Of a DNA stretch of 64,000 nucleotides, positions 727 to 54,149 are shown in pieces. This DNA comes from a virus: positions 5,201 to 69,200 of the IMG/VR virus record IMGVR_UViG_3300037517_002612; one strand, written 5' to 3'. The notes under the pieces were generated by a model. The model saw nothing but the letters and a program-made list of their open reading frames with translations, was not told the origin of the DNA and searched no databases. Each line of letters begins with the position of its first letter. Position 1 is the stretch's first letter. The translations under genes and the position numbers were made by a program.

Positions 727-756
727 AAACGTAGTTATCTGCAGATTATTGCGTCT
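727..756. repeat. 30-bp pseudo-palindromic site, copy 1
   Basis: AAACGTAGTT-ATCTGCAGAT-TATTGCGTCT; arms identical to copies at 3239 and 51483; overlaps the resolvase stop codon. Confidence 0.85.
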
Positions 757-1393
757 GCTCAAATTCTTTTCTTAAATATTTAACTGCCCTATCACCGAAG
801 GGGCGGGTAAAGCTAGGATCAAACTTAGGCATAAGAATAAATATCTCAGCATTAGTTTTTCCTTCTTTAATAAAGTGTAGTATAAGCTCTCTCATAGGCT
901 TCACTCGGTCCAAGAACTTCTGCCTGTTGGCTTCTTGGCCTGCCTTCTGTCCGGTGAGGTTTTTTGCGTTGCCCAAAGACTCTCCTCTTGCTCTCTTAGC
1001 TGAAAGAGCTTCCTTGATCCTGGTTTGTATTCTTTTTACTTCCCACTCGGCAATGACGGCCATAATTTTAATGGTGAGTTCATTAGCTTCTGGGAAGTCG
1101 CAAGCCCTAATTGGTACTTCTGAGTCAAGGATAGAGAATAGGAATTTACAGTCACGACTCAGACGATCAATTTTAGAAACTAGAAGAGTAGCTTTAAGGT
1201 CCTTACAGGCTAATAGGGCTTGTTGTAATTTGGGACGCAGATTATTGCGTCCACTCTCCACCTCTATAAAAGAAGCAACTACTTCATCCCCTGGACGTAG
1301 GTATTGTTGGACGGCTGCTTCTTGAGCTTCCAATCCTAGTCCGGATATCTCTTGAGACTTCCGGCTAACTCTCTTATAAACTACGTACCTCAT
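746..1393 (-). CDS. small serine recombinase (resolvase/invertase family)
   Basis: YKRVS catalytic motif, EVESG, KIDRLSR, helix-E AEWE..RI..RIKEAL; short C-terminal DNA-binding region. Confidence 0.92.
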   Translation of the reverse strand: MRYVVYKRVSRKSQEISGLGLEAQEAAVQQYLRPGDEVVASFIEVESGRNNLRPKLQQALLACKDLKATLLVSKIDRLSRDCKFLFSILDSEVPIRACDFPEANELTIKIMAVIAEWEVKRIQTRIKEALSAKRARGESLGNAKNLTGQKAGQEANRQKFLDRVKPMRELILHFIKEGKTNAEIFILMPKFDPSFTRPFGDRAVKYLRKEFEQTQ

Positions 1394-2058
1394 ATATCTA
1401 TCTTATTAGGTCCCGCCCATTGCTCGGCCATGCTTTTCGCAATACCTGGGAATGTTTTACTTCTTATTGTGCTGCGTTCTTCTTTAGTTTTAGCCTGTGT
1501 TAATGCTTTGTAATACCACATTGGCTGAGACTTTATTTTACCTGTCTTCCTATCGGTCCAATAAAATCTTTCTTCCGGTTCAACGTGAGTTATTTTGTCA
1601 CCAAATAAATTTTCTCTATCATTATGGTATAGCTTAGGTAAATTCTTTAACCATAGGCAAGTTGTTTTCTGAAATCCGTCCCCAAAAAAATAAGGCTGTA
1701 TAACTTGATCGTATGGTCTATAAATCTTCCCCATTATTCCCATAGGGTTTTCTATTGCTATTTTGTGTATTGGAGCATTGGCTATTTTTAAAAAGAAATC
1801 AATACCTTCCTGTTGCCTTCCGTCTAATCTTTTTTTTTCAAAGTGCATAGAACCACTTAAAGCTAAATGAGTACATGGAGGAAACGCAATCATCATATCC
1901 CAACCCATATTTATTACTTCAAAAATATCTCTTTGGTAATGCCATTCGGGATGTCCACCACTACAAGGCAACAAATCACAACTAAAGGCTTCATGTCCTA
2001 ATTTACGCAACTCTTTTGTTACGGCTTGGCTTTCTTCACATCCTACTAATATTCTCAT
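1390..2058 (-). CDS. DNA cytosine methyltransferase-like protein (short phage type)
   Basis: ILVGCEES, SCDLLP, AFPPCT (motif IV PC), IENP (motif VI), KTTCLWL, RSKTFPGIA. Confidence 0.75.
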   Translation of the reverse strand: MRILVGCEESQAVTKELRKLGHEAFSCDLLPCSGGHPEWHYQRDIFEVINMGWDMMIAFPPCTHLALSGSMHFEKKRLDGRQQEGIDFFLKIANAPIHKIAIENPMGIMGKIYRPYDQVIQPYFFGDGFQKTTCLWLKNLPKLYHNDRENLFGDKITHVEPEERFYWTDRKTGKIKSQPMWYYKALTQAKTKEERSTIRSKTFPGIAKSMAEQWAGPNKIDI

Positions 2059-2095
2059 TCCTACGCTAATTTTAAAAGTTTAAAAAAATACAGAC

Positions 2096-2149
2096 ACATA
2101 ACAGCAGATTGGCGGCATTAAAACGACCGCCAATCTGTAACCGTTATCT
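2096..2149 (-). mobile_element. attC-like (integron cassette-type) hairpin
   Basis: On the minus strand AGATAAC ... GTTATGT core boxes flank the perfect stem CAGATTGGCGG/CCGCCAATCTG. The stop codon of the upstream ORF lies in the first box. Confidence 0.55.
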
Positions 2150-2356
2150 GCCCCAAAAATACCTTCTTTTTTCTGATTGATAGCAAACATGTTTATGGAG
2201 TTTAATAGAATAATATGGAAACGCAATTATCGTCATTATAAATAACAGCGTCAACCCATTAGCCTGTTTAACTACGGTAATATTTACCCATAGCAGGAAT
2301 ATTGCCAGTACTATGGTTAGCATTACAATCAGGATTAAAAACTTAAATTTCGTCAT
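2144..2356 (-). CDS. small membrane protein
   Basis: Two hydrophobic helices; ATG 2356. Confidence 0.5.
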   Translation of the reverse strand: MTKFKFLILIVMLTIVLAIFLLWVNITVVKQANGLTLLFIMTIIAFPYYSIKLHKHVCYQSEKRRYFWGR

Positions 2357-2424
2357 AGAAAATTGCGTTTTAAATGAATAGAGCAATAACCATCATTATT
2401 AGGAATATGATCCAAAGTATAGCT

Positions 2425-2748
2425 TCAATCGTCGTCCTCTTCATCGTTTATCTTTTTAACAGTTAGTATTAATGACTTCTTGTCTATTGGTTTAAGATTG
2501 TATTCTATAATGGCAATCTTAAAGTGGTTGCTTATATAACGCTGTATTTCAGGTGTTATTGCTACTAATAGCCTACTTTCTTCCGAGTTTATTAGTCTTG
2601 TTTTTAAGAACTTTGGCATGAGTGGGTCTTTCTGAAGTCTGTAAAGTAGACGTACTGAGTACCCGTGAAGTTTTATTGTGCGGATCTTATTATTTTGTAC
2701 TTGCTCATCGGGTTGGCTGCTTCCTCTATCTTCTTCTTCCAGGTACAT
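2425..2748 (-). CDS. hypothetical protein
   Basis: ORF in the co-oriented early block; start uncertain. Confidence 0.45.
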   Translation of the reverse strand: MYLEEEDRGSSQPDEQVQNNKIRTIKLHGYSVRLLYRLQKDPLMPKFLKTRLINSEESRLLVAITPEIQRYISNHFKIAIIEYNLKPIDKKSLILTVKKINDEEDDD

Positions 2749-2888
2749 AATGCTCTTGGTTTATTGGTTAAAATGATTTGCCCTGTTCTTTCGTGGATTA
2801 GGTCCCAAAGGTCCTTTAGTTTAGGTTTGGGGGCTTCAGGATCAATACCAGTCTTTTTTGCTATTGCTGCTCTTACGTATTGGTTCAT
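2673..2888 (-). CDS. hypothetical protein
   Basis: ORF in the early block; ATG 4 nt after a 20-bp motif site. Confidence 0.5.
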   Translation of the reverse strand: MNQYVRAAIAKKTGIDPEAPKPKLKDLWDLIHERTGQIILTNKPRALCTWKKKIEEAANPMSKYKIIRSAQ

Positions 2889-2980
2889 GGGTAGACGTAG
2901 TTATTTGCGTTGTTTAAAATACTTAAACAGGTACCCGAAAGGTGATAGTCCTGCTATATCAAGAATTATGTTGATTAATT

Positions 2981-3217
2981 TCATAGTCCGGCTGCGATTA
3001 AATGCGTCTTTTCTAATGAATAAAGCTTATCTATAGCAGCACAATACTGTAGTCCTGCTAATTCTTCGTCTTTATCGCATTCAGGTAGTGCCCATTCACA
3101 GAAGCCAAACATTTCTATTGTTACTTCTATTAGTTGGCCCATTAAAGCTCTCCAAGGGTAAAGCTCGTTAATGAAGTTGAATTTGTCTTGGATGTTTGGT
3201 GGGAGTTCGTAGTTCAT
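2981..3217 (-). CDS. hypothetical protein
   Basis: ORF with A-rich leader in the early block. Confidence 0.55.
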   Translation of the reverse strand: MNYELPPNIQDKFNFINELYPWRALMGQLIEVTIEMFGFCEWALPECDKDEELAGLQYCAAIDKLYSLEKTHLIAAGL

Positions 3218-3238
3218 GGCTACTTTTGTTTTATGGTT

Positions 3239-3268
3239 AAACGTAGTTAATTACAGAATATTGCGTCT
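3239..3268. repeat. 30-bp pseudo-palindromic site, copy 2
   Basis: AAACGTAGTT-AATTACAGAA-TATTGCGTCT; overlaps the stop codon of ORF 3251-3451. Confidence 0.85.
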
Positions 3269-3451
3269 AATATACTTATTATATGTATTTTCTTCTACTT
3301 CAATGAATCCATAGAAGGGATCTATTACTTCTCCATATGGTAGCCAATACTCTTTACCTTCAATCAGGCAGAGCTTTGAGTTCTTGCCTGTCTTTCGGTT
3401 CTTGAATTCTCTTAGGATCTTACCTGGGATTTGTATGAAGGTTCTTTCCAT
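3251..3451 (-). CDS. hypothetical protein
   Basis: ORF coupled to the upstream ORF (TAATG overlap). Confidence 0.55.
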   Translation of the reverse strand: MERTFIQIPGKILREFKNRKTGKNSKLCLIEGKEYWLPYGEVIDPFYGFIEVEENTYNKYIRRNIL

Positions 3452-3660
3452 TAAAATAATTGTAGCTGTTTATAATAAGCTTCTAAGCTATTGCTTACTC
3501 TCGATAGTGTGCAATGAGTTAGTGGATACTCCTCACCCGTGATTACTTTGAGGACTTCCTGTCTTCTTATTACGTTTGTTCCTAGGTACATTGCTACCTG
3601 GATATCGAGGCTGAACCTATCGGTACCTCTTTCTTTTAGTTTCTCTAATAGCTCTTTCAT
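3451..3660 (-). CDS. hypothetical protein
   Basis: ORF in the early block. Confidence 0.55.
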   Translation of the reverse strand: MKELLEKLKERGTDRFSLDIQVAMYLGTNVIRRQEVLKVITGEEYPLTHCTLSRVSNSLEAYYKQLQLF

Positions 3661-3786
3661 GGTGAATTGTGGTTTATATGGGTTAACGTATATTTCTGTG
3701 ATTTATTTTAAAGTGTGTGGTCCGGTTAAAAATAAAAAATTTCTGTAGAATATTGCGTTTAATATAAAATTGCTTCCCTTTCGTGA

Positions 3787-3957
3787 TTAATTCCTGATGG
3801 CCAAAATACTGAGGGCCATAAACAAGGCTAAAAGAATAGTAAAAGGGATGGTTAAAATTAAGGATTGTATAATAATACTCATGGCAATGGTGATGCCCGT
3901 TAATAGGATTAATGACAATAATATTAGGGCTGCGGATATTAGTAAGCGTGTTTTCAT
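3787..3957 (-). CDS. 56-aa hydrophobic membrane protein (not in ORF track)
   Basis: Manual translation MKTRLLISAALILLSLILLTGITIAMSIIIQSLILTIPFTILLALFMALSILAIRN. Confidence 0.55.
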   Translation of the reverse strand: MKTRLLISAALILLSLILLTGITIAMSIIIQSLILTIPFTILLALFMALSILAIRN

Positions 3958-3998
3958 AGGCTGTGTGTTTATTTTGCTGTTGTTTGCTTTGGATTTAG

Positions 3999-4262
3999 TT
4001 AGATATTAACCTTTAGGCCGAATGTATGCAACGGGATAAACCTATGACATAAATTAAGCCTTAATAATATCAACACGCTTTCTTTATTAATTTGGCTAAA
4101 ATCGTCTGAGGCATGAAATAACCTTATAAATTCGGGTTTTGCATATCCTTCAATATCTCTAAAAAATGCGGTATTGTCATTCATCATCTCCGCTGCCTGT
4201 TGTATTCCTTTGATATACTTATTCAGCCTTTTTATGTCTCTGTTTAATTCTTGTACTGTCAT
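3999..4262 (-). CDS. hypothetical protein
   Basis: ORF in the early block. Confidence 0.6.
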   Translation of the reverse strand: MTVQELNRDIKRLNKYIKGIQQAAEMMNDNTAFFRDIEGYAKPEFIRLFHASDDFSQINKESVLILLRLNLCHRFIPLHTFGLKVNI

Positions 4263-4290
4263 GGTTATATAGTTTTAATGGTTTTCACCT

Positions 4291-4322
4291 AAAAAGCCCG
4301 CAACGTTTAAAGCGTGCGGGCT
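4291..4322 (-). terminator. hairpin + U-tract (terminator or RNA processing site)
   Basis: AGCCCGCA/TGCGGGCT stem followed by TTTTT on the minus strand. Confidence 0.5.
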
Positions 4323-4340
4323 GTTGTTTGCTTTGGTGGA

Positions 4341-4628
4341 TTAAATGAACTCTTGTAAAATAAATGCAACCACATATAATTCAATAGCGTGTTCAACTAC
4401 TTCTTTTTCGTTGGCGAACTTCTTATGTAAGTGCTGTTTTTGTGCTGTTAGTCGTTTATAGATTTCTAATAAGTGATGGCAGCCGTTATGCGTTTGAACA
4501 GATGCGAAGCTAGTTTTATCAGAACCTTGCATAAAACTAATAGAAGTTATCTGATTGCCTTCTTTAACAATCTTTATATATCTATCATGATCATTGTTGA
4601 AGTAAATTTCTTGGCTTAATGTTTTCAT
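4341..4628 (-). CDS. hypothetical protein
   Basis: ORF with AAACGACC-ATG leader, shared with ardA. Confidence 0.6.
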   Translation of the reverse strand: MKTLSQEIYFNNDHDRYIKIVKEGNQITSISFMQGSDKTSFASVQTHNGCHHLLEIYKRLTAQKQHLHKKFANEKEVVEHAIELYVVAFILQEFI

Positions 4629-4649
4629 GGTCGTTTATTTATTTATGGT

Positions 4650-4778
4650 TTATAATTTACAAAAATTAACTGCGTCTTCTTCTTCTTGGGCTTCTGTTAC
4701 GTAGTGGCCCGCTTCCGTTATTATATAGACGCGATTAACTGCGTCGTATATAATAATATAGCCGTTTATTTCATTCAT
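4650..4778 (-). CDS. 42-aa hypothetical protein (not in ORF track)
   Basis: Manual translation MNEINGYIIIYDAVNRVYIITEAGHYVTEAQEEEDAVNFCKL; fills the gap. Confidence 0.45.
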   Translation of the reverse strand: MNEINGYIIIYDAVNRVYIITEAGHYVTEAQEEEDAVNFCKL

Positions 4779-4790
4779 AGCATAGTAGTA

Positions 4791-5078: not shown

Positions 5079-5088
5079 GGTGGTCCGT

Positions 5089-5355
5089 CTAAATTTGGTT
5101 TGTGATTCTTTTGTATATAAAGTCATGGAATTGGGTTAAAATAAAATTTTCTGCGGTTTCCCATTCATCAGGGACGTTTTGTCCCCATTCTATTTCGTCA
5201 CTCCTTCTGCTTAATGTTGGGGCTTGTATTATATAGCCGTCGTAGTCCATTATTTGGGCTCCTTTATCGTCGTACATTGTAAAGCTGAAATCGTATCGGC
5301 CATGTTGTCTGTCTGTGTTGTCTTCGAATACTATGTCTTTAATAATTTCTGTCAT
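5089..5355 (-). CDS. acidic hypothetical protein
   Basis: ORF in the early block. Confidence 0.6.
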   Translation of the reverse strand: MTEIIKDIVFEDNTDRQHGRYDFSFTMYDDKGAQIMDYDGYIIQAPTLSRRSDEIEWGQNVPDEWETAENFILTQFHDFIYKRITNQI

Positions 5356-5388: not shown

Positions 5389-5640
5389 TTATTGAACTTT
5401 TGTTACAAACCATTTTACTTCATGCCCTGAGTTATATAGGATGTTGTCTATCTTGGTTATCAGGTTATCCATGGCCATATCATTTGTAAGGCACATTGTT
5501 AGGTCTTTATCGTCTTCCTCTATTCCTGCGCCAAATTCGTTGGCTTTTTTTATATATTGGTGAAGGGCATCCGCTTCGAATTGAAACGTATATACGTCTA
5601 TTATGCCTTTGTTTGTGGTTATTATTGCATTTACTTCCAT
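5389..5640 (-). CDS. acidic hypothetical protein
   Basis: ORF in the early block. Confidence 0.6.
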   Translation of the reverse strand: MEVNAIITTNKGIIDVYTFQFEADALHQYIKKANEFGAGIEEDDKDLTMCLTNDMAMDNLITKIDNILYNSGHEVKWFVTKVQ

Positions 5641-5740
5641 AGGTTATTAATTTAAGTTTGTGATTAATTGCGTCTCACCACCTTAATCCCCTACCTACAT
5701 TCAAGTAGATTAGAGGCTAAGGGGGTTGTTTGGAGTTTAT

Positions 5741-6301
5741 TTAATCATTCCAATTATCGTTTATTAGGTAGTAAATGCCATCATATTGAAATTCGGTATA
5801 ATTTTCCCGTTTAAAGCGGTCGTAATCAATGCTGATATAGTCGCTTTTGCTCTCTGCTTCTACTACATCAGGGTAAAACATCTCGAATTCTTCATAAATA
5901 GCGTCGCGTGTGTCCTCTATTAAATAAACGTCTTCGAATTTATCCATGGCATAACTAAAACTTTCACCTTGGTCCATGATAAAACAAACCTTAATTTTGT
6001 CATCATCATCTAGGTTAATAAACTCGTATAACTCTTCGAAGTCCATTCCTGACTCACTATAAAAAGAACGTGGGAACCCTTCGAAGTCTGTTATCATTAT
6101 TTCCTCTCTTTTACTGCCAAACCCTAAAGGGCTTTTTTGGTCCGCTTCTTCAAAGTGGTTCTGAATATACTCGTCTAACTCGTCCGCGTCATTGAAGTCG
6201 GTTAAATCAACCCAATGGCCAAACTCGAATTGCGTGCCGTTATTATAACTTGCGTAATCTGTTAGAAAGATTTTTGGGGTTTCTGCTGTTGTGGTTTTCA
6301 T
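5741..6301 (-). CDS. ardA: ArdA-like antirestriction protein (DNA mimic)
   Basis: IFLTDYASYNNG...GHWVDL, EEIMITDFEGFP, C-terminal YIDYDRF-type motif; very acidic. Confidence 0.85.
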   Translation of the reverse strand: MKTTTAETPKIFLTDYASYNNGTQFEFGHWVDLTDFNDADELDEYIQNHFEEADQKSPLGFGSKREEIMITDFEGFPRSFYSESGMDFEELYEFINLDDDDKIKVCFIMDQGESFSYAMDKFEDVYLIEDTRDAIYEEFEMFYPDVVEAESKSDYISIDYDRFKRENYTEFQYDGIYYLINDNWND

Positions 6302-6321: not shown

Positions 6322-6417
6322 TTAATTAAATAATTTACTTTTGATTTCTGCTTGTTCGTAGTTAACTGCGTATACTATTATACTGCATCCGTTAACAATA
6401 AAATTATATAGCTTCAT
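6322..6417 (-). CDS. 31-aa hypothetical protein (not in ORF track)
   Basis: MKLYNFIVNGCSIIVYAVNYEQAEIKSKLFN; ATGA overlap with the upstream ORF. Confidence 0.4.
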   Translation of the reverse strand: MKLYNFIVNGCSIIVYAVNYEQAEIKSKLFN

Positions 6418-8199: not shown

Positions 8200-8778
8200 A
8201 TGAATTTTATTGATCTTATTGAATCTAGACGCATTAAACTAGGAATTAACATCGAGGAACTCTGCCGGAGAGCTGGTATGACTCACGCTTCTAACTACAT
8301 TAAATACAGGGATATGGGTGTGATGCCTGGCTTCCAAAACGTAGTTGATCTTATGAATGCTGTAGGGTATAACCTCGTTGCCATGGACGATAAGTTGAGG
8401 AACCCAGATAAAATTATTGAGTGGTGCACAATAAGTCTTTATATTCACCGTTATAAAGATCATCTCTGCTACGTGTTTGAGAAGATAACTGGGTTCAGAA
8501 CACCGGTTAGTAGACATAACTCGGCATTGATAAAGACTGTTCTTTTTTATGTTTGGTATCACAAGACAACGCAGAATATCGCGTCCAACATAACTCTCCA
8601 CGACGTAGTGTACGAACCAGGAGTAGATATGGAGGACATGATCCACGACTTATCCGCAATAGGATTAATTACGTTGGAGGGAAACCCGTCTAACATAGCC
8701 TATCAATTCTTCATGGAAGTAAGCGAAGGTCTTAAACAATATCTTGAATCGGCTGAATTAGCGGTTCATTTAACTTAA
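8200..8778 (+). CDS. XRE-family HTH protein with C-terminal extension
   Basis: RRIKLGINIEELCRRAGM...P.FQNVVDLMNAVG. Confidence 0.65.
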   Translation: MNFIDLIESRRIKLGINIEELCRRAGMTHASNYIKYRDMGVMPGFQNVVDLMNAVGYNLVAMDDKLRNPDKIIEWCTISLYIHRYKDHLCYVFEKITGFRTPVSRHNSALIKTVLFYVWYHKTTQNIASNITLHDVVYEPGVDMEDMIHDLSAIGLITLEGNPSNIAYQFFMEVSEGLKQYLESAELAVHLT

Positions 8779-25708: not shown

Positions 25709-28700
25709 TGCAAGATAACAGGCAACAAACCATAGAGTTTAAATATACCGGACTAGACCAGGACAGCGATCAAAGATTAATGAACCCTGGGGATAGCCGC
25801 TATCGCCTTAATTGTATTAACGACAGTACCGATGATGGACTATTAGGGGACATTCAGAATATTAAGGGAAACGCAATTTATCCATACGATGCGCCAGCCG
25901 GAACAAATAAGGTTATTGGTAGCTGTAAGGATACGCAGAATAACGCGATAGTTTTCTTCGTTTATAACTCAAATGGAGATCATCAAATAAGACGTTTCTA
26001 CCCAGACACATTAGCAAACGAACTTATCCTACAAAGTGAAGAGTTAAACTTTCAGGCCAACTTCCGTATTTACCACGCAAATATCATTAACGGATTGCTG
26101 TATTGGACAGACGGTTGGTTTGAGGACTTCGAATACGGATCCAACAATAAACTTAATTACAACCCCCCAAGGAAGATAAATATCCAAAAAGCAATTGACG
26201 GTGACCCTGGTTATTCACCTATTACATTTGAAACACTAGATAGGATTAAATACCAACCACCAACAACAGCTTCTCTTAGGTATATTTATGATGCGGCAAA
26301 CGCAATTAACTACGTCTACGGAAAACTATATCAAGTCACCTACCGTTACATTTGTGATGATAAAGAAGTAACAACATGGGCATCACTCAGCAAAGCCCTA
26401 CTACCTGTTTATAACTACAAGGATAATAACGTTTTTGAGCTATTAGAAAACACCCTTGGTATTACATTATGGACAGGATCAGAGATAGTTACCGACATTG
26501 AAATAGCATTGAGAATAAATGATTCTTACTTTATCATATCAAGACTAAACAAAGCTGAGGCCGGTATAGGATCAAATACACTATACGAATATAATTACAA
26601 CGGTATTGGCTATAAGGAAAACCTATTGGCAGAAGATTTTCTACGTCCATTTGATTACGTCCCACAAATATCACAAACCCAAGACATTGTAGGAGGCAGA
26701 ATAACAGATGGAAACGTTACAGAAAACTACGACAATCTTGACCTTGATATGGAGTTTGAGTTTATTAGGTATGATAAAACCACAGATATTCGATCAACAA
26801 GCCCAGATATTATCAATACAGCAGACCCAAATACATTCCCTTGGGGAACAGGTATAAACACCATGCAATATCCCTTGTGCACATTTAAAAGCGAAGGGGT
26901 ATATCAACCCTGCATAATCTATAAAGATAGAGCTAAGAGGTCGGGAGTGGCACAAACAAAAGAAGAATACATCTTATTAAGCCCATCATATAACGTTGGG
27001 TTATTCCCGCTTAATGGAATGTTATTGGATCCATTAAAGCTAAGATACACTATTAACCATGAGCCGCCTGTTTGGGCAAAGTACTATTCGTTTGGACTAA
27101 CCAAAGAACTTAGTTACATTAAAAAACAGCAAATACTTCTTACTGCTAGGAACTTTAATTTAAGAGATGGCAAGATTAAACTACCATTACAAACTGGATA
27201 TACATTTACTGAAGGAGATAAAATAAAACTTATTTCAGTAATGACACCCCAATCAAATGCTCCAGACGATCTTTATACCTACGCAGACCAGATTGCAGAT
27301 TACTTTTATCTACCATTTAGCAACTCGAACAACTACACCGTAGATCAACAGGTAAGCACATTTAACTATAAGGTAGATGAGTACGATCCCGCAACATTCG
27401 AAATTGTATTAACAAAGGGCGATGCAGCCGATATGAAAAACTACATTCAAGGAGAAATAGTTCCGGATCCAACAAAGGTATCAGCATTTCCATATTATAG
27501 TAACTATTACTACCTAATTGAGATATACAATAATAACAGAGATACAACAGAAAATAAAGTGTTTTATGAGGTAGGAGAAGACTTCGAAATTGGAAACGCA
27601 TATACCCCCTCCAGATACCACAAGTGCTCTGTACAAAACCAAGTTAATGGTGGACAACCAGCAATTGGAGAAGTATATGGGTTTGACGCATATCTTAGAA
27701 GAAAGAAAACACTACTAAACGACCAATCAATCTTATTAGATATTTTTACTCCAGCGTATTTTGTTCATACATCTTCAGTAGATAACACCATAGCATTCCC
27801 AACAGCATGGCTTCAGGCATTTAACAATTCAAACCTTGATATCAACGGAGATTATAGCGGAACAGCCTTAATTACAAATACGCAGTTTTTAGGATATGTA
27901 GGTTTTGGACAACCGGAAGAGGACCTGTTAACAAATACTATTATTATTTCACAAATATCTGGATCATGGACACCGCTTCCTCCAGCCAATACATATCCTA
28001 CATACATTAGCTTCTTTGGAACACAGGAAATTTATCCATGGTTAGAAGACGAAGCATTCGCAGATGACTACCCATCTACAGTTTACAACGACGGTAGAGT
28101 AAACTCAAACCTTGAAACCCTTGGTAGAAAGAACTACATATCAAGACTACGTTGGTCCGGCCCGTTATTTGAGAATACCCTTACAAACGAATTATCAACA
28201 GTATTTGAAGGATCATATAAAGACCTATCAGAAACGTATAACGAGATAAGCCGGATAAGACAAGTGGGTGATACCCTACGTGTACGACAGAAGAACAAGA
28301 TGTCATCGTTCTACATCGACAAGAACATGCTTAACGTTAATGAAGGTGTAGCAAACGTCGGACAATCCGCAGACTTCCTATCTACACCTAACCTATACGA
28401 TGAGTATTACGGATCCTCTACCCCAGGTTCCGACTCCATAAGCACCAGGACAACTTACTTCATGGACCTCCTTCACGGCCTTATTATACGGGACGCAGGT
28501 AACAAGCCCATCCCTATTTCTGGTGATGACGATAACCCGAACGATCAGTTTAAAATGGCAAAGTTCTTTAGGGACCTATGTAAAAACATCAGAGCCGTTG
28601 GAGAAGACAGCTTTAATATCATCAGTTGTTGGGATGAGTTCTCATCACTATATACCTTAACAGTACAGGACCTAAGAACCGTATTCAATACCATCCCAGA

Positions 28701-29238
28701 CCAATCCATGACCATTGTATTCCACGAGCCTACAAACAGGTGGAAGTCTTTCATGTCATATATTCCTGAGTGGTACGAAACCATGGGGCAATTCCTAGTT
28801 TCATTTAAGAATGCACAACCTTATTTACACTACACCAACCCAACAAGGAATAACTTCTTTGGTACCCAATATGGACAGGAGATAAGGGTAACAGCCAACA
28901 TTGCACGAAACACCGTTAAAATTTTTAACAATCTTGACGTGTATTCTAATATTGCCTGGGAGATACCTACTATTAATATCCCATCTACCCCAAACTCACC
29001 TAACGGAATGCTATCTGCTTTACCAGCAGCAAGGTTTAAAGCGAAAGAGGGGGTGTGGCACGCATCTTTCTTGAGAGATAAAAACGACCCCAAATATCCT
29101 ATCGCACCTTTAGCTTTAATTAACGGCAGAAGATTGCGTGGTGAAACAATTGAACTTGTTATGACAAATACTTCAACAAGTTTAGTATATTTGAGGGCAT
29201 TAAATATTTATATTAATCCATCTGAACTTACACTATAA
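25708..29238 (+). CDS. tail stabilisation / muzzle protein (P22 gp10-like)
   Basis: GLDQDSD.RL, LLYWTDG, PPRKINI, WKSFMSY.PE, NNFFG.QY, KEG.W, LRG motifs. Confidence 0.8.
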   Translation: MQDNRQQTIEFKYTGLDQDSDQRLMNPGDSRYRLNCINDSTDDGLLGDIQNIKGNAIYPYDAPAGTNKVIGSCKDTQNNAIVFFVYNSNGDHQIRRFYPDTLANELILQSEELNFQANFRIYHANIINGLLYWTDGWFEDFEYGSNNKLNYNPPRKINIQKAIDGDPGYSPITFETLDRIKYQPPTTASLRYIYDAANAINYVYGKLYQVTYRYICDDKEVTTWASLSKALLPVYNYKDNNVFELLENTLGITLWTGSEIVTDIEIALRINDSYFIISRLNKAEAGIGSNTLYEYNYNGIGYKENLLAEDFLRPFDYVPQISQTQDIVGGRITDGNVTENYDNLDLDMEFEFIRYDKTTDIRSTSPDIINTADPNTFPWGTGINTMQYPLCTFKSEGVYQPCIIYKDRAKRSGVAQTKEEYILLSPSYNVGLFPLNGMLLDPLKLRYTINHEPPVWAKYYSFGLTKELSYIKKQQILLTARNFNLRDGKIKLPLQTGYTFTEGDKIKLISVMTPQSNAPDDLYTYADQIADYFYLPFSNSNNYTVDQQVSTFNYKVDEYDPATFEIVLTKGDAADMKNYIQGEIVPDPTKVSAFPYYSNYYYLIEIYNNNRDTTENKVFYEVGEDFEIGNAYTPSRYHKCSVQNQVNGGQPAIGEVYGFDAYLRRKKTLLNDQSILLDIFTPAYFVHTSSVDNTIAFPTAWLQAFNNSNLDINGDYSGTALITNTQFLGYVGFGQPEEDLLTNTIIISQISGSWTPLPPANTYPTYISFFGTQEIYPWLEDEAFADDYPSTVYNDGRVNSNLETLGRKNYISRLRWSGPLFENTLTNELSTVFEGSYKDLSETYNEISRIRQVGDTLRVRQKNKMSSFYIDKNMLNVNEGVANVGQSADFLSTPNLYDEYYGSSTPGSDSISTRTTYFMDLLHGLIIRDAGNKPIPISGDDDNPNDQFKMAKFFRDLCKNIRAVGEDSFNIISCWDEFSSLYTLTVQDLRTVFNTIPDQSMTIVFHEPTNRWKSFMSYIPEWYETMGQFLVSFKNAQPYLHYTNPTRNNFFGTQYGQEIRVTANIARNTVKIFNNLDVYSNIAWEIPTINIPSTPNSPNGMLSALPAARFKAKEGVWHASFLRDKNDPKYPIAPLALINGRRLRGETIELVMTNTSTSLVYLRALNIYINPSELTL

Positions 29239-29942
29239 TGGATCCACTATCAGCAGTAATGGCAGGAATACAAGGGGGAACTGGAATTATCCAACTCCTT
29301 TCAGGTCTTTTTGGACAACAAGAAAGACCCAAATACGATATTCCAACAGCAGCAACAGAGTCTCTTAACGTAGCAAAGGGATTAGCCGGACAAACAAAAC
29401 TTCCAGGACAGGATATTTACGAAACGCAGTTAGGAGAGAAGACCGCTAACATGACTAAGAACATCGAGAGAATGGGCGGTGGTGGTTCTGGCCTTGGCAC
29501 CCTATCAAACATATATGCTCAAGAGGCAGGGGCCAAAAGAAACCTTGCCGTTGACGCAGCTAAATACTACCAACAAAACCAAAGAGGTTTACAAGGAGCT
29601 CTTGGGCAATATGCTGGATGGCAAGATAAAAAATGGCAAAACGACGTTGGGCAACCAGCAGCAGATAAAAACGCAGCGACAAGTGCATCTATTCAAGCAG
29701 GTATGAGTAACGCATTTGCAGCAGGAAATAACATTGCAGGCATGAACTTCTACGAAAACCTGTATAATCCAAAGACGCAGAATTCTACGTCTACTCCAAA
29801 AACACAGATTTTACAATCGTACGCTAATCCATTAGGAAGCCCAAAATCTAATGCCATATCTAATTCGGCAACAGCTACCGCTAATGGATTGTTTACTCCT
29901 GAAATGTTACAAATTTTAATGGGACAACTTAGACAAGTTTAA
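29238..29942 (+). CDS. ejection/cargo protein 1
   Basis: G/A/Q-rich with a hydrophobic N-terminus; first gene after the muzzle. Confidence 0.6.
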   Translation: MDPLSAVMAGIQGGTGIIQLLSGLFGQQERPKYDIPTAATESLNVAKGLAGQTKLPGQDIYETQLGEKTANMTKNIERMGGGGSGLGTLSNIYAQEAGAKRNLAVDAAKYYQQNQRGLQGALGQYAGWQDKKWQNDVGQPAADKNAATSASIQAGMSNAFAAGNNIAGMNFYENLYNPKTQNSTSTPKTQILQSYANPLGSPKSNAISNSATATANGLFTPEMLQILMGQLRQV

Positions 29943-51220: not shown

Positions 51221-51484
51221 ATGTTCGGATACGAAGGCAAAAAAAGGTTCACACTCAATATACCAGGAATAGGTCTAGTTCGATACGGGACTTGCGAAAG
51301 AGATACAGATGATTGGAGGGACCTATGGTATGACGGGGAAGGTTGGTGGATAAGGCACTGGACTCCTACATACGGGGAAGAGATTAGCAGGGGGAAACTT
51401 CCAGAAGGAACGCAGATAGCTAATGGGTTCTACGACACAGAACACGACGAATTCTTATGGCCTGATGACTTTGTTTTTAAATAG
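51221..51484 (+). CDS. hypothetical protein (Trp/acid-rich)
   Basis: ORF in operon. Confidence 0.55.
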   Translation: MFGYEGKKRFTLNIPGIGLVRYGTCERDTDDWRDLWYDGEGWWIRHWTPTYGEEISRGKLPEGTQIANGFYDTEHDEFLWPDDFVFK

Positions 51485-51512
51485 ACGCAATATTCTACAG
51501 TTAACTACGTTT
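51483..51512. repeat. 30-bp pseudo-palindromic site, copy 3
   Basis: AGACGCAATA-TTCTACAGTT-AACTACGTTT; reverse-complement arms of copies 1 and 2; overlaps a TAG stop. Confidence 0.85.
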
Positions 51513-51519
51513 ACTCAAT

Positions 51520-51762
51520 ATGGAAAAAAGCAATCACACTTACTCTCTCTCCATCTACAATGGTAGAGTAAAAATCTACATAGATGGTATTGTAATGGTA
51601 TCATTTAATCAAATAGATTTTAAGGGATACTACGCATTTAAAGACGATACTAAGCTATATGGATTAGACATCTATCTTATTGGTGGAGTTACTATCGAAA
51701 CCTCTTATAAAACTAAAGAGGTATGGACGCAGGTTTTAAAGCTAATGGATAAAGAATTATGA
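51520..51762 (+). CDS. hypothetical protein
   Basis: ORF in operon. Confidence 0.6.
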   Translation: MEKSNHTYSLSIYNGRVKIYIDGIVMVSFNQIDFKGYYAFKDDTKLYGLDIYLIGGVTIETSYKTKEVWTQVLKLMDKEL

Positions 51763-51998
51763 ATAAAATAATTGATATAAAGACAATCAGTACCTCGAAT
51801 AATGATACTGATAAAAGCTCTAATTGCTATAAATTTTCTTTTAATGCACAAGTAGAACGGCTATTAGAGGATGGATATGTGCCTTATGACCAGCTTCAAG
51901 TATCTTTTTCTAGCGCAACAAAATCTGTTACAGGAGGAGAGAACTCTGGGCATAGATACCTTACTCAGCAATTTGTAAAATATGAAGATGAATTTTAA
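51759..51998 (+). CDS. small protein (DUF1737-like)
   Basis: FNAQVERLLEDGY.P...YLTQQFVKYE. Confidence 0.5.
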   Translation: MNKIIDIKTISTSNNDTDKSSNCYKFSFNAQVERLLEDGYVPYDQLQVSFSSATKSVTGGENSGHRYLTQQFVKYEDEF

Positions 51999-52014
51999 AC
52001 ACAGTTAACTACGT

Positions 52015-53676
52015 ATGTTTAAAAAATACCGCATAATATCCGAAGGGCAACTACCAAACTCCCAACATGGCATCTTTAACCCTGGAGCAGTACAATGCCC
52101 TCTAATTAAAAGCGATCGCAACATCCTTTTAAGACAGGATACCACTCGCGGATATAGTAATGACTGTAACACCGTACTCGTAGTAGACAAAATAGAAAAG
52201 CTAAAACACGGGGAAGTAGACAACTACTACTACCTCACAAAAGAAGGCTTCCCAGAAGGCAAAATAGAGGATTTCAGACTCTTCCACTTCCGAGGAGAAT
52301 TATATGCTATCCACACATTAGTAGTTACAAAAGACCTATTAATGAATGCCGAGGTAATCAAGCCTGTTATATCCAAGGTTACACGTTCAACCATCACAAT
52401 GGTAGACTACGTAGAACTACCAGGTATCACAAAGAAACAATGGGAGAAGAACTGGATGCCAATAGTCTGGAAGGACAATCTATACATAATCTACGGAATA
52501 GATCCCTTAATCATTTATAAGCTACAGGGTTGGTCATGGATGCAAGTAATGGAAGTAGACACCGGACTCATAGCACAAGTCAAACAATGGCACCCAAAAG
52601 CTTCATTCTTATCATTATCAGCGACGCATTTATTTGAAGGAAACCAAGTACTCGGCTTCTGGCACATAAGAGAAAACGATATTTATTATCAGGGAATGTT
52701 TGCCTTAGACATGGAAACCCTGAAAATAACCCACTTTACCCCTCCTGTTATCGACGGCACCGATGCAGAGGGGTATAAAGCAGGGTGCCTATACGTTAAC
52801 GACTTAGTGGTAACAGAGAACAACGTAGAAGTTTGGTGCGGAGAAGGAGACTCCCATACAACAATGTTGGAAGCCCCAAAAAACTACGTCGCCCAAAAGC
52901 TATCCGAACACCCATATAACTACACAGCCCCATTAAAGATTAAACTACTTGACAACGGAGTAGGAGACTTCATTTGCGCCATGTATGCAATAAACGGATG
53001 GCTCAGAGATAACCCTACCAGAAAGATAAAACTATACCTATTAGCTAACCGACAAATAGCCACCATCCTAAACATCCCAAGAGTGGAGATATGGAATTGG
53101 TCCGGACAAAGGGTAGACCTCGATCTATCCTCCAACCAAGACAATATCCCATTCAGAGATAGAAAAATCTACCATGAAAAGGTGAAAGGATCATTCAAGG
53201 AGTGGTATAGTAAAGCACTCGGCACAACACCGGAGGATATAAAAGTAGACCACATAGAGCCATTAAAAGGCTATGAAGATGCTATAGTATTATTCCCATT
53301 CGCAGCGCATCCAGAAAGATGCTGGCCTAAAGAGAGATGGATAGAATTGGCGACGCAGTTAATTGCGTCTAATCACAGAGTCATAATATCAGATCCCTTC
53401 CCCGAAAGATGTAAGGACTTCCCAGGAGAACACTTATTAGGAACCTCCATGAGAGAAGTATTAGGATTAATTAAAACAGCTAAATTAACAGTTTCAAACG
53501 AGTCAGGAGCAGCCCATATGGGAGGACTCTTTGAAAGCAAGACTTTAGTATTAAGTGGTTGGCTTGATCCGGCCAAGATTAATGATCGAACAAACAACGA
53601 CTACATATTCAAACCTTCACTTAAACTAATTGAAGTTGAAGAAGTTTACAATAAAATTATTGGTTTAATAAAATAA
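52015..53676 (+). CDS. GH130-like beta-propeller + GT9-like glycosyltransferase fusion
   Basis: FNPG, EDFRL, WEKNWMP in the N-terminal part; GVGDFI, FPFAA..ERCWP.ERW, VSNESG.AH in the C-terminal part. Confidence 0.75.
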   Translation: MFKKYRIISEGQLPNSQHGIFNPGAVQCPLIKSDRNILLRQDTTRGYSNDCNTVLVVDKIEKLKHGEVDNYYYLTKEGFPEGKIEDFRLFHFRGELYAIHTLVVTKDLLMNAEVIKPVISKVTRSTITMVDYVELPGITKKQWEKNWMPIVWKDNLYIIYGIDPLIIYKLQGWSWMQVMEVDTGLIAQVKQWHPKASFLSLSATHLFEGNQVLGFWHIRENDIYYQGMFALDMETLKITHFTPPVIDGTDAEGYKAGCLYVNDLVVTENNVEVWCGEGDSHTTMLEAPKNYVAQKLSEHPYNYTAPLKIKLLDNGVGDFICAMYAINGWLRDNPTRKIKLYLLANRQIATILNIPRVEIWNWSGQRVDLDLSSNQDNIPFRDRKIYHEKVKGSFKEWYSKALGTTPEDIKVDHIEPLKGYEDAIVLFPFAAHPERCWPKERWIELATQLIASNHRVIISDPFPERCKDFPGEHLLGTSMREVLGLIKTAKLTVSNESGAAHMGGLFESKTLVLSGWLDPAKINDRTNNDYIFKPSLKLIEVEEVYNKIIGLIK

Positions 53677-53718
53677 AACTATATTTGTACAACTGTAGTC
53701 TTTTTAGCTTTTTTTACT

Positions 53719-53754
53719 TCCCCGTACAATAATATGTACGGGGATTCGTTTTTT
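53719..53754 (+). terminator. hairpin/terminator just downstream of a promoter box (53680-87)
   Basis: TCCCCGTACA/TGTACGGGGA + T-run. Confidence 0.6.
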
Positions 53755-53790
53755 ATAATGGATTGAATTATAACTTTAAATTTAAAAATA

Positions 53791-54057
53791 ATGGAAGAAA
53801 TAAATAACTTAATTGCCAAGTATAAGAATAAGATTGAATTTGCAAAAATGATTCAGGGGGGCGCAGGCTCAAATCCTGACTTGGATAGAATAATAATGTC
53901 GCAATTAAATGATATGGTTGCATATTTAAAATCTTTAAATGAAACTATCGAACACAAGTCTTGGGAATTTTGTGATAACTGCCCACATCAACACTCATGC
54001 TCACATAATGGAGCTTGTTCACGTAATAAAGTACAGAATATCCCATCAATAAAATAG
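53791..54057 (+). CDS. hypothetical protein with Cys cluster
   Basis: CDNCPHQHSC....C. Confidence 0.55.
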   Translation: MEEINNLIAKYKNKIEFAKMIQGGAGSNPDLDRIIMSQLNDMVAYLKSLNETIEHKSWEFCDNCPHQHSCSHNGACSRNKVQNIPSIK

Positions 54058-54149
54058 TTTTTTTATATCAAAAATATTGTTATTTTTACCACGCAATCAA
54101 CTACGTTCACCCCTAAAAAATACTCAAAATAACCACAAATAATACTACT

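Follow-up and report, generated by a model that had tools for sequence, protein, structure and literature searches.

The DNA analysed here (the window) is a 64,000-nucleotide stretch of the 69.2-kb genome of a lake-water phage whose host is probably a member of the Bacteroidota. We found about 15 copies of one 16-base near-palindrome in this phage, mostly in short gaps 5' of small non-structural genes. The window total is 15 sites, four beyond the eleven stretches listed in the original prediction, all eleven of which read as stated there; a scan of the genome's first 5200 bases, which precede the window, yielded 0 sites.

On the minus strand, 30-bp site 1 (727..756; AGACGCAATAATCTGCAGATAACTACGTTT when read in the gene direction) overlaps the TAA stop codon of a small serine recombinase gene (746..1393, minus strand) with a Resolvase N-terminal domain, and is followed downstream on the transcribed strand by a terminator-like hairpin with a T-run (672..706, minus strand). 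The same gene contains a 20-bp site (1233..1252) that is homotypic, both arms being of the ACGCA type. An intergenic heterotypic 20-bp site (2893..2912) ends 6 nt before the ATG of ORF 2673..2888, and 30-bp site 2 (3239..3268) overlaps the stop codon of 3251..3451 (minus strand) and ends 23 nt before the ATG of 2981..3217. Further minus-strand sites, all intergenic, are a 20-bp site (4727..4746) about 100 nt before the ATG of 4341..4628, a degenerate site (5656..5675; 3 mismatches to the 16-mer, and missing from the original list) 17 nt before the ATG of 5389..5640, and a heterotypic 20-bp site (6354..6373) 54 nt before the ATG of an ArdA-like gene (5741..6301). An extra half-site lies at about 4660-4677, near site 4727..4746.

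The remaining sites are on the plus strand. A degenerate site (8567..8586) lies inside ORF 8200..8778, its 16-mer core starting 13 nt past a TATGTTTG box at 8548-8555; a perfect 16-mer core (26298..26317), heterotypic and co-oriented with the gene, lies inside the gene for a 1176-aa muzzle-like protein; and the newly found site ACGCAGAATTCTACGT (29773..29792) lies inside ORF 29238..29942. Toward the right end, 30-bp site 3 (51483..51512) overlaps the TAG stop codon of 51221..51484 (plus strand) and ends 9 nt before the ATG of 51520..51762. An intergenic site missing from the original list (51997..52016) has its 16-mer core ending at the ATG of a GT9-like gene (52015..53676), inside which there is a perfect, homotypic 16-mer core (53351..53370); in relative G001, these codons likewise carry a cognate site. 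Intergenic site 54089..54108, at the head of the gene run that includes both HTH genes described below, directly abuts the 3' end of a promoter-like box, TATTTTTA (54081..54088, plus strand), one mismatch from the Bacteroidota -7 box TAnnTTTG. The same TATTTTTACC is also found before gene 20203. The last site (58606..58625), again an addition, lies within the 3' end of 57980..58678, with an Erf-like gene starting 62 nt further on.

For a paired search, arms were defined as ACG[CT]A and T[AG]CGT with a variable spacer between them. Arm pairs are enriched at exactly two spacings: N6, with 12 strand hits (6 sites) in the whole 69.2-kb genome against a mean of 0.18 strand hits in 100 dinucleotide shuffles, and N16, with 6 strand hits (3 sites) against 0.22 in the same genome and number of shuffles, the shuffled expectation being about 0.1 sites per spacing. 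The histogram for spacers of 0 to 40 has six at 6, three at 16 and at most two elsewhere (0.4 expected per bin). With their centres 11 or 21 bp apart, the arms lie on one face of the helix. Sequence ACGYARTTAAYTRCGT, with up to two mismatches allowed, occurs 10 times in the window (30 dinucleotide shuffles: mean 0.13, maximum 1), and the occurrences at 729 and 3241 are the first 16-mers of 30-bp sites. The original prediction had cast the pattern as ACG-N10-CGT or ACG-N20-CGT, to be checked by a spacer histogram against codon-preserving shuffles; in our dinucleotide-preserving shuffles the five-base arms are in excess at both spacings, but bare triplets are much weaker (15 at N10 and 10 at N20, against 6.8 expected per bin), so that N20 is not significant on triplets alone. 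The three 30-bp sites do share arms (AAACGTAGTT / TATTGCGTCT, inverted in 51483-51512), do each overlap a stop codon and do all have the same orientation relative to transcription (3/3), as had been described, although they can alternatively be read as two overlapping weak 16-mers with a common middle CTRYAG (n = 3). No sequence conservation was found outside the palindrome in this phage.

Intergenic sequence makes up 5.4% of the window but contains the centres of eight of the 15 sites (p = 3.5e-7); six sites lie wholly within genes, and the structural part, 53% of the window, has only two (p = 0.002). A start codon follows nine of the sites, at distances of 0, 6, 9, 17, 23, 43, 54, 62 and about 100 nt. 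By arm class, 10 sites are clearly heterotypic, four homotypic and one degenerate, and every clear heterotypic site (10/10) has the ACGCA arm upstream and the TACGT arm downstream with respect to transcription (P = 0.0047 with a composition-adjusted forward probability of 0.585; P = 0.014 when the three 30-bp sites are counted as one). No TAnnTTTG box was found within 90 nt of the nine site-preceded genes; such boxes occur 4-22 nt before the ATG of 7433, TerL 12625, 15095, 17528, the giant ORF 32718, 45466 and 61043. Box-preceded and motif-preceded genes do not overlap, which is not significant alone, an estimated 1.5 or so being expected (9 and 11 of 68 genes).

None of five relatives contains the exact motif, but the two nearest, G001 and G002, each have their own enriched motif, and in their full palindromes the ACG-N10-CGT frame is retained; conservation is thus of the frame in these two and not of the exact sequence. 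In G001 (TerL 55% identical), GACGNNATTAAT occurs 34 times against a shuffle mean of 0.24, with 17 of the 34 copies intergenic (8% intergenic fraction); most copies are half-sites, and only one full palindrome was found. In G002 (TerL 47% identical), ACGC-N8-GCGT occurs at 7 sites (14 strand hits; shuffle mean 0.24) and AACGCYAAY 39 times (shuffle mean 1.76), and the motif centre differs from that of our phage. From the shared frame only, we infer that the three motifs may be homologous. Orientation tracks transcription weakly in both relatives (G001: 19 co-oriented, 11 anti-oriented, 4 ambiguous; G002: 17, 7 and 1). Sites adjoin ATGs in G001 whichever way they point: forward ones are at -2 (three cases), -7 and -8, and reverse ones at -1 (two cases) and -9. 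TAnnTTTG boxes in this relative are at -16 or -17. G003-G005 were scanned and no enriched motif was found.

Four proteins had been named as candidate binders: the recombinase and the products of 8200, 56030 and 56224. Only that of 56224 has a relative in both G001 and G002, and thus in all three motif-bearing phages; for the other three, none was found in G002. This best candidate (56224..56631, plus strand) is a 135-aa protein with two predicted tandem XRE/Cro-like HTH modules and a basic linker (residues 58-75). Its AlphaFold2 model (mean pLDDT 81.8) has two four-helix modules (residues 6-57 and 76-127) with the linker between; at a pTM of 0.45, it does not define how the two modules are placed with respect to each other. 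The family profile matches G001 (E = 8.6e-53) and G002 (E = 4e-13) and has no match in G003-G005; both halves match a single-module 70-aa protein at the syntenic place in G002 (E = 1e-8 and 0.012). In a VIA search with either module, the majority of the best 50 matches were XRE/Cro/CI-type HTH proteins (Z 4.9-6.9; rmsd about 2.3-2.8 Å over 52-67 residues in the best rows), although the tool itself cautions that Z below 8 may reflect a common helical arrangement, and the fold matches are middling (best Foldseek E-value 0.67). The gene for a 65-aa HTH_3 (Cro-like) protein (56030..56227, plus strand), an alternative binder, and the recombinase gene each have an ortholog in G001 only, and both likewise co-occur with the ATTAAY-centred motif (our phage and G001). 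ORF 8200..8778 (plus strand) encodes a 192-aa protein whose G001 ortholog has a weak N-terminal HTH_3 match.

We suggest, at somewhat short of an even chance, that the sites are operators or stoperator-like cis-regulatory DNA for a phage HTH regulator, most likely the 135-aa protein. The binding, the identity of the binder, the arm contacts and the sign of regulation are what we infer, as follows. Having two XRE/Cro-like modules in one chain, the protein would be a covalent pseudo-dimer: one module would read the ACGCA arm and the other the TACGT arm one helical turn off, with the basic linker (SPKKRRGRRK) over the A/T-rich centre (TTAA), and at the 30-bp sites (n = 3) a flexible linker would allow it to span arms two turns apart on the same DNA face. 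The regulon would be the non-structural part of the genome, that is, the leftward small-gene block 746-7047 plus the 51.4-58.7-kb region, and the heads of structural and replication operons would carry host-type Bacteroidota -7 boxes instead. Sites 54089 (0 nt) and 8567 lie just 3' of a promoter-like box, so that binding would block initiation there; in the other gaps, over stop or start codons within gene runs, it may block or modulate read-through, as at mycobacteriophage stoperators. The sites do behave like sequence-specific protein sites (exact spacing, intergenic enrichment, cognate diverged motifs), in line with the original proposal of a dimeric phage protein, but the dimer may instead be a monomer with two HTH modules. 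Among the functions originally offered (stoperator-like repression, genome organisation, recombinase crossover), the stoperator-like one is the best fit, given the short gaps over stops and starts, the two sites after promoter-like boxes and the orientation. As the phage lacks a clear lysogeny module, nothing evident points to a role of the immunity type. This phage was absent from the RNA runs.

Most motif-preceded genes lack a recognisable promoter, and the sites could therefore be promoters or activator boxes. As a separate class serving small non-structural genes (compare T4 MotA boxes), used by the host RNA polymerase after modification by the phage, or by a polymerase or sigma factor that the phage encodes, they would have a modest chance of being the right explanation: nine are gene-co-oriented at 0-100 nt from start codons that lack a nearby TAnnTTTG, leaders are short genome-wide (the ATG comes 4-22 nt after a box), there is a loose likeness to TAnnTTTG in the motif's downstream half (TAACTACG in our phage, TAATCTCG in G001, TAAAGTTG in G002), and gene 20729-21424 of G001 is preceded by a TATATTTG box with a half-site immediately 5' of it. 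However, G001 sites abut ATGs both ways, which a bound protein fits better than a promoter, and in some ATTAAT overlaps the ATG, leaving no room for a start site; site 1 of our phage aims only at the terminator-like hairpin, nothing is conserved outside the palindrome, 6 of the 15 sites are wholly within genes, and scans of Pfam, PHROGs and NCBIfam yielded no sigma factor or RNA polymerase. Slightly less probable again is that the sites are operators bound by the 65-aa HTH_3 protein as a homodimer, or by the 192-aa protein, rather than by the tandem-HTH protein. The 65-aa protein has a curated HTH_3 match (E = 2.5e-7; bit score 31, cut-off 23), Cro-type dimers of this kind typically target 14-17-bp palindromes, and its G001 ortholog (60% identical) differs in the presumed recognition helix, which matches the small motif shift between the two phages; for the 192-aa protein there are the weak HTH_3 match of the G001 ortholog (E = 3.9e-5) and the internal sites that both orthologs carry. 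Yet neither has a detectable relative in G002, where a motif of the same frame occurs, and a symmetric homodimer explains neither the 10/10 heterotypic arrangement nor the two spacing classes.

Two readings are disfavoured, the sites as crossover points of the recombinase and as mRNA hairpins. That the recombinase uses the sites, or the three 30-bp ones at any rate, for crossover, as originally offered, or in an accessory role we regard as improbable, even though its Resolvase domain is clear (E = 4.4e-21), its gene has one site inside and one at its stop codon, and G001 has four distinct sites within 1 kb of the orthologous gene (4358/4364, 4467, 4690, 5313). The 30-bp sites also approximate the length and layout of resolvase and invertase sites as we know them (outer inverted arms, A/T-rich inner part), and arm spacing varies in res subsites too. 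Against this, the domain is found in none of the four relatives besides G001, G002 thus having the motif frame without it; recombination among 15 to 39 dispersed sites would scramble an essential genome; and we know of no resolvase site as short as the 16-20-bp palindromes, those known to us being 25-34 bp. Cassette differences in a strain variant have no edges at the sites, and for the excision of 757-3268 raised originally, no joint of sites 1 and 2 (about 757 to about 3268) was seen in contigs of four runs, a weak test since contigs drop rare variants. Least probable of all is that the palindromes act as mRNA hairpins (terminators, processing sites or translational operators), for which their location between genes, over stop codons and near start codons and the hairpin after site 1 would speak: for 8 of the 15 sites the sense-strand RNA stays unfolded (0.0 kcal/mol), the sense strands sum to an MFE of -39.7 kcal/mol against -82.9 for the antisense strands, variable positions lack covariation and give C.A mismatches on the sense strand, and G001 copies are mostly half-sites without a partner arm. 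By these predicted foldings a sense-strand hairpin is largely refuted.

Among known systems, the closest parallel to the proposed operators is in cluster A mycobacteriophages, where, according to PMC9283540, the L5 gp71-type immunity repressor has many short-site copies genome-wide, at promoters and in short intergenic spaces, with site orientation correlating with transcription direction, and binds its asymmetric site as a monomer with two DNA-binding domains. Our phage shares the dispersed copies, the orientation and a candidate with two DNA-binding modules per chain. The cluster A sites are 13-mers without dyad symmetry, whereas ours are near-palindromes of 16-20 bp, with an additional class of 30 bp; the second gp71-type domain is a special 'Stoperator domain', whereas that of the 135-aa candidate is a second HTH; and cluster A phages are temperate and infect Actinobacteria, whereas our phage has no evident lysogeny module and its hosts are probably Bacteroidota. 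We detected no sequence or fold relation between candidate and gp71-type family, and a block to elongation, as at cluster A stoperators, is for our sites a proposal by analogy. Like res, hix and gix systems, the phage encodes a small serine recombinase with sites in and beside the gene; unlike res, the sites are dispersed with no single compact locus and the 16-20-bp class is too short, and unlike all three, the motif frame persists in G002, where the recombinase is absent.

The virion RNA polymerase of coliphage N4 uses hairpin promoters, which our sites resemble in being short inverted repeats 5' of early-type genes; another N4-like trait is that 14 of the 15 sites fold on the template (antisense) strand, while the sense strand is often unfolded. 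Unlike N4 promoters, G001 sites are mostly half-sites in both orientations, and no RNA polymerase was found in the 4184-aa ORF (no PDB sequence match and no DFDxD motif; only an LPD39-type lead). For the crAss-like phage phi14:2, whose early promoters are unknown, the authors report no common motif upstream of early transcripts (bioRxiv 10.1101/2020.03.07.982082). Our phage shows crAss-like traits in having a muzzle C-terminal domain, a large TerL and a giant virion-type ORF. The 135-aa modules also resemble Cro/CI (XRE) proteins of temperate phages and the C proteins that control restriction-modification systems, matching Salmonella phage Rep, TP901-1 CI, lambda cI-NTD, C.AhdI and C.Esp1396I by fold only and at middling strength (Z 5.0-6.9). 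Those are single-module chains that dimerise, whereas two modules are fused in our phage and G001. The operators of such proteins, C-protein boxes included, span 14-17 bp with dyad symmetry and one helical turn between the arms; they cluster at one or two promoters, whereas the phage sites are dispersed over 58 kb of the window.

The sites constitute a real, statistically strong and lineage-conserved network of cis-elements. All eleven stretches listed in the original prediction read exactly as written there, and a search of the window for the 16-mer ACGYARTTAAYTRCGT with at most two mismatches returned 10 copies; 30 dinucleotide shuffles averaged 0.13, and none held more than 1. The spacer histogram of ACG[CT]A-Nk-T[AG]CGT peaks at k=6 (6 occurrences) and k=16 (3 occurrences); the other 39 spacings hold at most 2 each, with 0.4 expected per bin. 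Counted as strand hits over the whole genome, the two classes gave 12 and 6, against means of 0.18 and 0.22 in 100 shuffles. Arm centres lie 11 bp apart at the six sites of the first class, a dyad whose arms are about one helical turn apart, and 21 bp apart at the three sites of the second. The minimal ACG-N10/N20-CGT pattern proposed originally is borne out in its excess when the arms are taken as five bases; bare ACG-Nk-CGT triplets give a much weaker signal (15 at N10 and 10 at N20, against 6.8 expected), understating the N10 class and overstating N20. We added four sites (51997-52016, 58606-58625, 29773-29792 and the degenerate 5656-5675), bringing the total to 15. The isolated half-site TWAYYRCGT is likewise enriched: it gave 49 strand hits where shuffles averaged 7.0, and roughly half of the 49 belong to full sites. 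No description of such a motif was found in the literature on Cellulophaga or crAss-type phages, screened mainly at overview level.

The phage (here G000) comes from a 69.2-kb IMG/VR virus record, of which the window is bases 5201-69200. Both record ends (G000 1-290 and 68908-69200; window 63308-64000) overlap inside a collagen-like (Gly-X-Y) tail-fibre gene, so that the assembly is effectively circular and the 'linear' record is probably a circularly assembled complete genome; the overlapping end copies differ slightly from each other. At window 746-7047 a block of some 18 genes, most of them small, is transcribed leftward; it holds a serine recombinase, a DNA methyltransferase, a RadC-like gene and an ArdA-like anti-restriction gene. 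All genes outside this block are transcribed rightward, in the order primase/helicase, large TerL, structural genes (one protein with a crAss muzzle C-terminal domain) and a 4184-aa ORF, followed by GroEL and GroES, methyltransferases, a GT9-like gene and a series of small genes, RecE-like and Erf-like recombination genes among them. Relatives in culture are distant: TBLASTN with TerL found only phages of Flavobacterium, Cellulophaga and Maribacter, all below 60% identity (about 23% for the best among the matches listed), and megablast of window 1-8000 against cultured phages gave no match. Nearer TerL relatives exist at the protein level (P0002-P0010, 67-54% identical); a single-query TerL search of viral_contigs recovered no relative, and a scan of JGI metagenomes added none nearer than G001, one of the two closest genomes treated below. 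DNA of this phage recurs in lake-water metagenomes, with a variant form in wastewater metagenomes; none of the RNA runs checked was listed with it.

The Bacteroidota -7 box has the consensus TAnnTTTG. Boxes of this kind, mostly TATATTTG or TATTTTTG, lie close upstream of replication, TerL, structural and giant-ORF genes (window 7421-7428, 12611-12618, 15069-15076, 17503-17510, 32694-32701, 45436-45443 and 61020-61027), with 4-22 nt between box and ATG; this arrangement implies very short or absent leaders and transcription of the box-headed operons by the host polymerase. By eye, Shine-Dalgarno sequences are absent before the start codons; given this and the host-type boxes, a Bacteroidota host is likely.

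The sites are placed very unevenly. Intergenic DNA makes up 5.4% of the window yet holds the centres of 8 of the 15 sites (binomial p = 3.5e-7), and the structural 53% of the window holds only two (p = 0.002). Nine sites are followed by a start codon, at distances of 0, 6, 9, 17, 23, 43, 54, 62 and about 100 nt from the end of the site. All three 30-bp sites (727-756, 3239-3268 and 51483-51512, termed sites 1 to 3) extend across the stop codon of the gene before them; downstream of site 1 lies only a terminator-like hairpin (706-672 on the transcribed strand). The promoter-like box noted originally beside the site at 54089 is TATTTTTA at 54081-54088; it directly abuts the site, and gene 20203 is preceded by the same TATTTTTACC. 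Similarly, the 16-mer core of the site at 8567 begins 13 nt past TATGTTTG (8548-8555). Judged from position, both sites are where an operator would sit. The TAnnTTTG box is absent within 90 nt of all nine motif-preceded genes (small genes of unknown function together with ArdA-like, GT9-like and Erf-like genes), and the motif precedes none of the box-preceded genes (replication, TerL, portal-region, giant-ORF and tail genes). With zero genes shared where we estimate about 1.5 by chance, this exclusivity is not significant by itself, but the genes in the two sets are of different kinds. A sigma-70-type promoter scan of window 1-9000 was uninformative, with 35 matches against 33.5 in shuffles. 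Elements of ECF promoters are typically spaced by 16-17 nt, and we rejected an ECF-like promoter (AAC ... CGT) on the 11-nt spacing measured by eye.

Relative to local transcription the motif departs from a true palindrome, with ACGCA as its upstream arm and, in most sites, TACGT (complement ACGTA) as its downstream one. This order holds at 10 of the 10 clear heterotypic sites, those with unlike arms; four of the remaining sites have two ACGCA-type arms, one is degenerate, and no site among the 15 has two ACGTA-type arms. The transcribed-sense strand is A-rich, and composition alone predicts the choice of C/A over T/G in 58.5% of cases; with this adjustment the 10/10 order has P = 0.0047, or P = 0.014 when the three near-identical 30-bp sites count as one. 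A consequence of the fixed arm order is that the sense RNA is often unfolded and the antisense strand folds: the sense RNA has no fold at all at 8 of the 15 sites and the antisense strand folds at 14, with summed minimum free energies of -39.7 and -82.9 kcal/mol, respectively. This disfavours a hairpin acting in the mRNA. The gap suggests either selection against structure near start codons, with retention of a DNA site that tolerates transitions, or a binder that discriminates between the arms.

TerL alignment led to 13 IMG/VR loci, from which five long records (G001-G005) were taken. G001 (74.8 kb) and G002 (71.2 kb, with terminal repeats) have TerL 55% and 47% identical to that of G000; for G003-G005 the figure is 28-33%. 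The exact motif is not conserved: ACGYARTTAAYTRCGT at up to two mismatches has one chance-like match (with two mismatches) in the five relatives, and the 30-bp pattern has none in viral_contigs. Each of the two nearest genomes has its own enriched motif, GACGNNATTAAT in G001 (34 observed, shuffle mean 0.24) and AACGCYAAY in G002 (39 observed, shuffle mean 1.76). G002 also has the palindrome ACGC-N8-GCGT (14 strand hits, that is, 7 sites; shuffle mean 0.24). Half of the G001 copies (17 of 34) lie between genes, in a genome that is 8% intergenic; copies are often flanked by TTTTGGGGYG, and full palindromes such as GACGGGATTAATCTCGTC are few. A spacer scan counted seven full palindromes in G002 and one in G001, all in the common frame ACG-N10-CGT with an A/T-rich centre. 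The conservation in related phages is one of frame, seen in G001 and G002, and we infer the homology of the three motifs from that frame. G001 also repeats the division between box-preceded and motif-preceded genes: structural operon heads have CTATATTTG boxes at -16 or -17, a fixed position at which the box is found ahead of nine genes, and motif sites precede other genes. There the sites abut ATGs both ways, forward at -2 (three times), -7 and -8 and reverse at -1 (twice) and -9. In G003-G005, 8-mer and inverted-repeat scans of limited sensitivity found no comparable motif. A k-mer enrichment in G004 is explained entirely by a 12-nt tandem repeat within a gene at 5600-5990 (GGCCCCGATATT and variants), and a CTAAA-N3-TTTAG signal in G001 was rejected because it stems from repeated gene starts. 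As a separate observation, the intragenic site at 53351-53370 in the GT9-like gene lies at the same codons as G001 29960-29990 (ELATQLIAS / ELATRLIAS); the site fits each genome's own version of the motif, the Q-to-R change creating GATTAAT in G001.

Four proteins had been put forward as binders, and one of them has detected relatives in both motif-bearing relatives. The recombinase (PF00239, 746-1393) is present in G001 (E = 1.4e-25), as are the 65-aa HTH_3 protein (56030-56227; 60% identical) and the 192-aa protein (8200-8778; 32% identical); for none of these was a counterpart found in G002. The 135-aa protein (56224-56631) has a 46% identical relative in G001 and a single-module relative in G002. 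It is an internal duplication whose halves match the 70-aa G002 protein at E = 1e-8 and 0.012, and the gene for the latter is syntenic, following the ortholog of 55593. A family profile built from seven sequences hit G001 (E = 8.6e-53) and G002 (E = 4e-13) and gave no match in G003-G005, so that the family is present in 3/3 genomes with the motif and absent from 3/3 without it. The family is rare, with eight representatives among 1.84 billion proteins: seven are tandem proteins of 135-138 aa, and the eighth (P0119) is a 491-aa protein with five matched HTH-module stretches. Scanning viral_contigs recovered G001 alone.

The AlphaFold2 model of the 135-aa protein (mean pLDDT 81.8, pTM 0.45) predicts two four-helix modules (residues 6-57 and 76-127) with a basic linker between them (58-75, reading ...SPKKRRGRRK...). 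Foldseek matches were weak (best E-value 0.67), with SinR, HipB and C.AhdI in the top rows. In a VIA search both modules (4-66 and 73-135) aligned to XRE/Cro/CI/C-protein HTH domains in most of the top 50 rows, over 52-67 residues with rmsd of about 2.3-2.8 A in the best rows and Z of 4.9-6.9, a range (below 8) that may reflect a common helical arrangement. On this model we assign an XRE/Cro-like HTH fold, from matches of middling strength; Pfam and NCBIfam gave no match to the protein. The tandem-HTH gene itself contains a half-site, AATCGCGTC, in both G000 and G001 (about 56545-56560; G001 26080-26109), in the stretch coding for the second presumed recognition helix; against the aligned codons it is displaced by one base. 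This half-site may serve autoregulation or be coincidental.

The sites are most likely operator-like and roadblock-like sites for this small two-module HTH regulator. Its two HTH modules are unlike each other and would read the two unlike arms, spaced by one helical turn, with the basic linker positioned over the A/T-rich centre. If the linker is flexible it could also span arms two turns apart, which would explain a second spacing class exactly 10 bp further out; alternatively, the three 30-bp sites can be described as two overlapping weak 16-mers sharing a central CTRYAG. The single-module protein of G002 would have to dimerise. At 54089 and 8567, just after the promoter-like boxes, the bound protein would repress initiation; in short gaps within gene runs it would hinder read-through. 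Autoregulation is plausible, because the site at 54089 heads the gene run that includes both HTH genes.

Cluster A mycobacteriophages have a monomeric repressor with two DNA-binding domains that binds more than 20 asymmetric 13-mers, as in L5 (PMC9283540). These stoperators lie at promoters and in short intergenic spaces, their orientation correlating with transcription (PMC9283540). The network described here resembles them in its many dispersed copies (15 in G000, 34 in G001, 39 in G002), in the 8 of 15 intergenic centres in G000 and in the two G000 sites that follow promoter-like boxes. The candidate has two predicted HTH modules and the sites have unlike arms, and a monomer may bind here in a similar way. 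The second module is predicted to be another HTH rather than a Stoperator domain, and no structure of the L5 gp71 / TipsytheTRex type was among the Foldseek and VIA matches listed for the 135-aa protein. As to orientation, 10/10 heterotypic sites are co-oriented with transcription in G000, with 19 co-oriented and 11 anti-oriented copies in G001 and 17 and 7 in G002; the rule is clear only in G000, and the tracking in G001 is weak. The stoperator-like option of the original prediction fits the dispersed, often intergenic or promoter-adjacent placement; a block to elongation at bound sites would be its presumed mechanism. No lysogeny module is evident in G000, a point against this reading.

Two other readings bear on the same sites. 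Resolvase and invertase sites are about 25-34 bp long, with inverted arms of about 12 bp and a central crossover dinucleotide, and the three 30-bp sites match this length, so that these at least might serve the serine recombinase; the twelve 16-20-bp sites, however, fall outside it. G002, moreover, has its seven full palindromes of the ACG-N10-CGT frame and yet no detected PF00239 protein. The suggestion that the sites are crossover sites was therefore not borne out, and we disfavour it. A joint between 757 and 3268 was not seen in the contigs of four runs, contigs being a form of data that drops rare variants. One contig of run X13, from wastewater, matches the window from 3234 and is preceded by the reverse complement of 51518-51547, the far flank of site 3; this loose end may reflect cross-mapping of two 30-bp sites that are 27/30 identical, or sites 2 and 3 may truly be joined there by an inversion.

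Since most motif-preceded genes have no recognisable promoter, the sites could instead form a promoter class of their own, or its activator boxes; as promoters they would define a phage-specific transcription class in this lineage. In a special form of this idea, they would be hairpin-type early promoters read by an injected polymerase carried within the 4184-aa virion protein. The template strand does fold at 14 of the 15 sites, as G.T-tolerant stem-loops, against 7 of 15 for the sense strand, and the use of host-type boxes and the motif on different gene sets invites an analogy with the crAss-like phage phi14:2. The preprint on that phage (bioRxiv 10.1101/2020.03.07.982082) reports host-type promoters for its middle and late genes and no common motif upstream of the early transcripts of its virion polymerase. 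Against the injected-polymerase idea, no polymerase was found in the giant ORF (32718-45272), which gave no PDB sequence match, no DFDxD motif and only a weak unrelated Pfam match, and the sites in G001 stand directly at ATGs in both orientations. Residues 2281-2447 of the ORF match PHROG 9880 (unknown function), and its best Atlas clusters point to the polyvalent-protein domain LPD39, with a score of 0.88 that we treat as a lead only. We consider the injected-polymerase version very improbable; if true, it would give the first early-transcription promoter motif in the crAss-related lineage.

Gene regulation in Bacteroidota phages, the crAss-related ones included, is almost uncharted, most such phages being without a cultured host. 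G000 supplies a cis-element of exact geometry, two relatives with diverged cognate motifs and, from a rare family, one small candidate regulator. Binding of the sites by the tandem-HTH protein would place beside the actinobacteriophage stoperators a second, independent genome-wide network of oriented operators and roadblocks served by a two-domain monomer. On the same condition, the three genomes would offer a natural series of co-evolving recognition helices and sites, from a single module (G002) to a fused tandem (G000 and G001).

The wastewater variant X13 differs from the window by 676 extra bases at 2138, replacement of 3977-4648 by about 555 others, and about 330 extra bases near 5010 (about 5005-5014), which looks like cassette exchange in the small-gene block. 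The left edge of the replacement falls within CCAAAGCAAACAACAGC, which is repeated upstream of genes 3957 and 4262. We rejected cassette shuffling at the sites themselves, since the edges (2138, 3976-4649 and about 5010) lie away from them, one edge being 10-20 nt from a half-site. The sites at 727-5675 are unchanged in X13, with one change at 6365, at the contig end; this constancy is uninformative because 47 differences over about 10 kb predict about one change inside sites. Directly after 30-bp site 3, an 80-aa protein (51520-51762) matching no known family is 90% identical to G002 24760-24999, reflecting either recent exchange or unusual constraint, given TerL identity of only 47% between the two phages. 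Just upstream of TerL, a 271-aa protein (11790-12605) shows weak GroES/Cpn10-like matches at each of its ends; the GroEL/GroES pair at 46599-48565 is separate from it.
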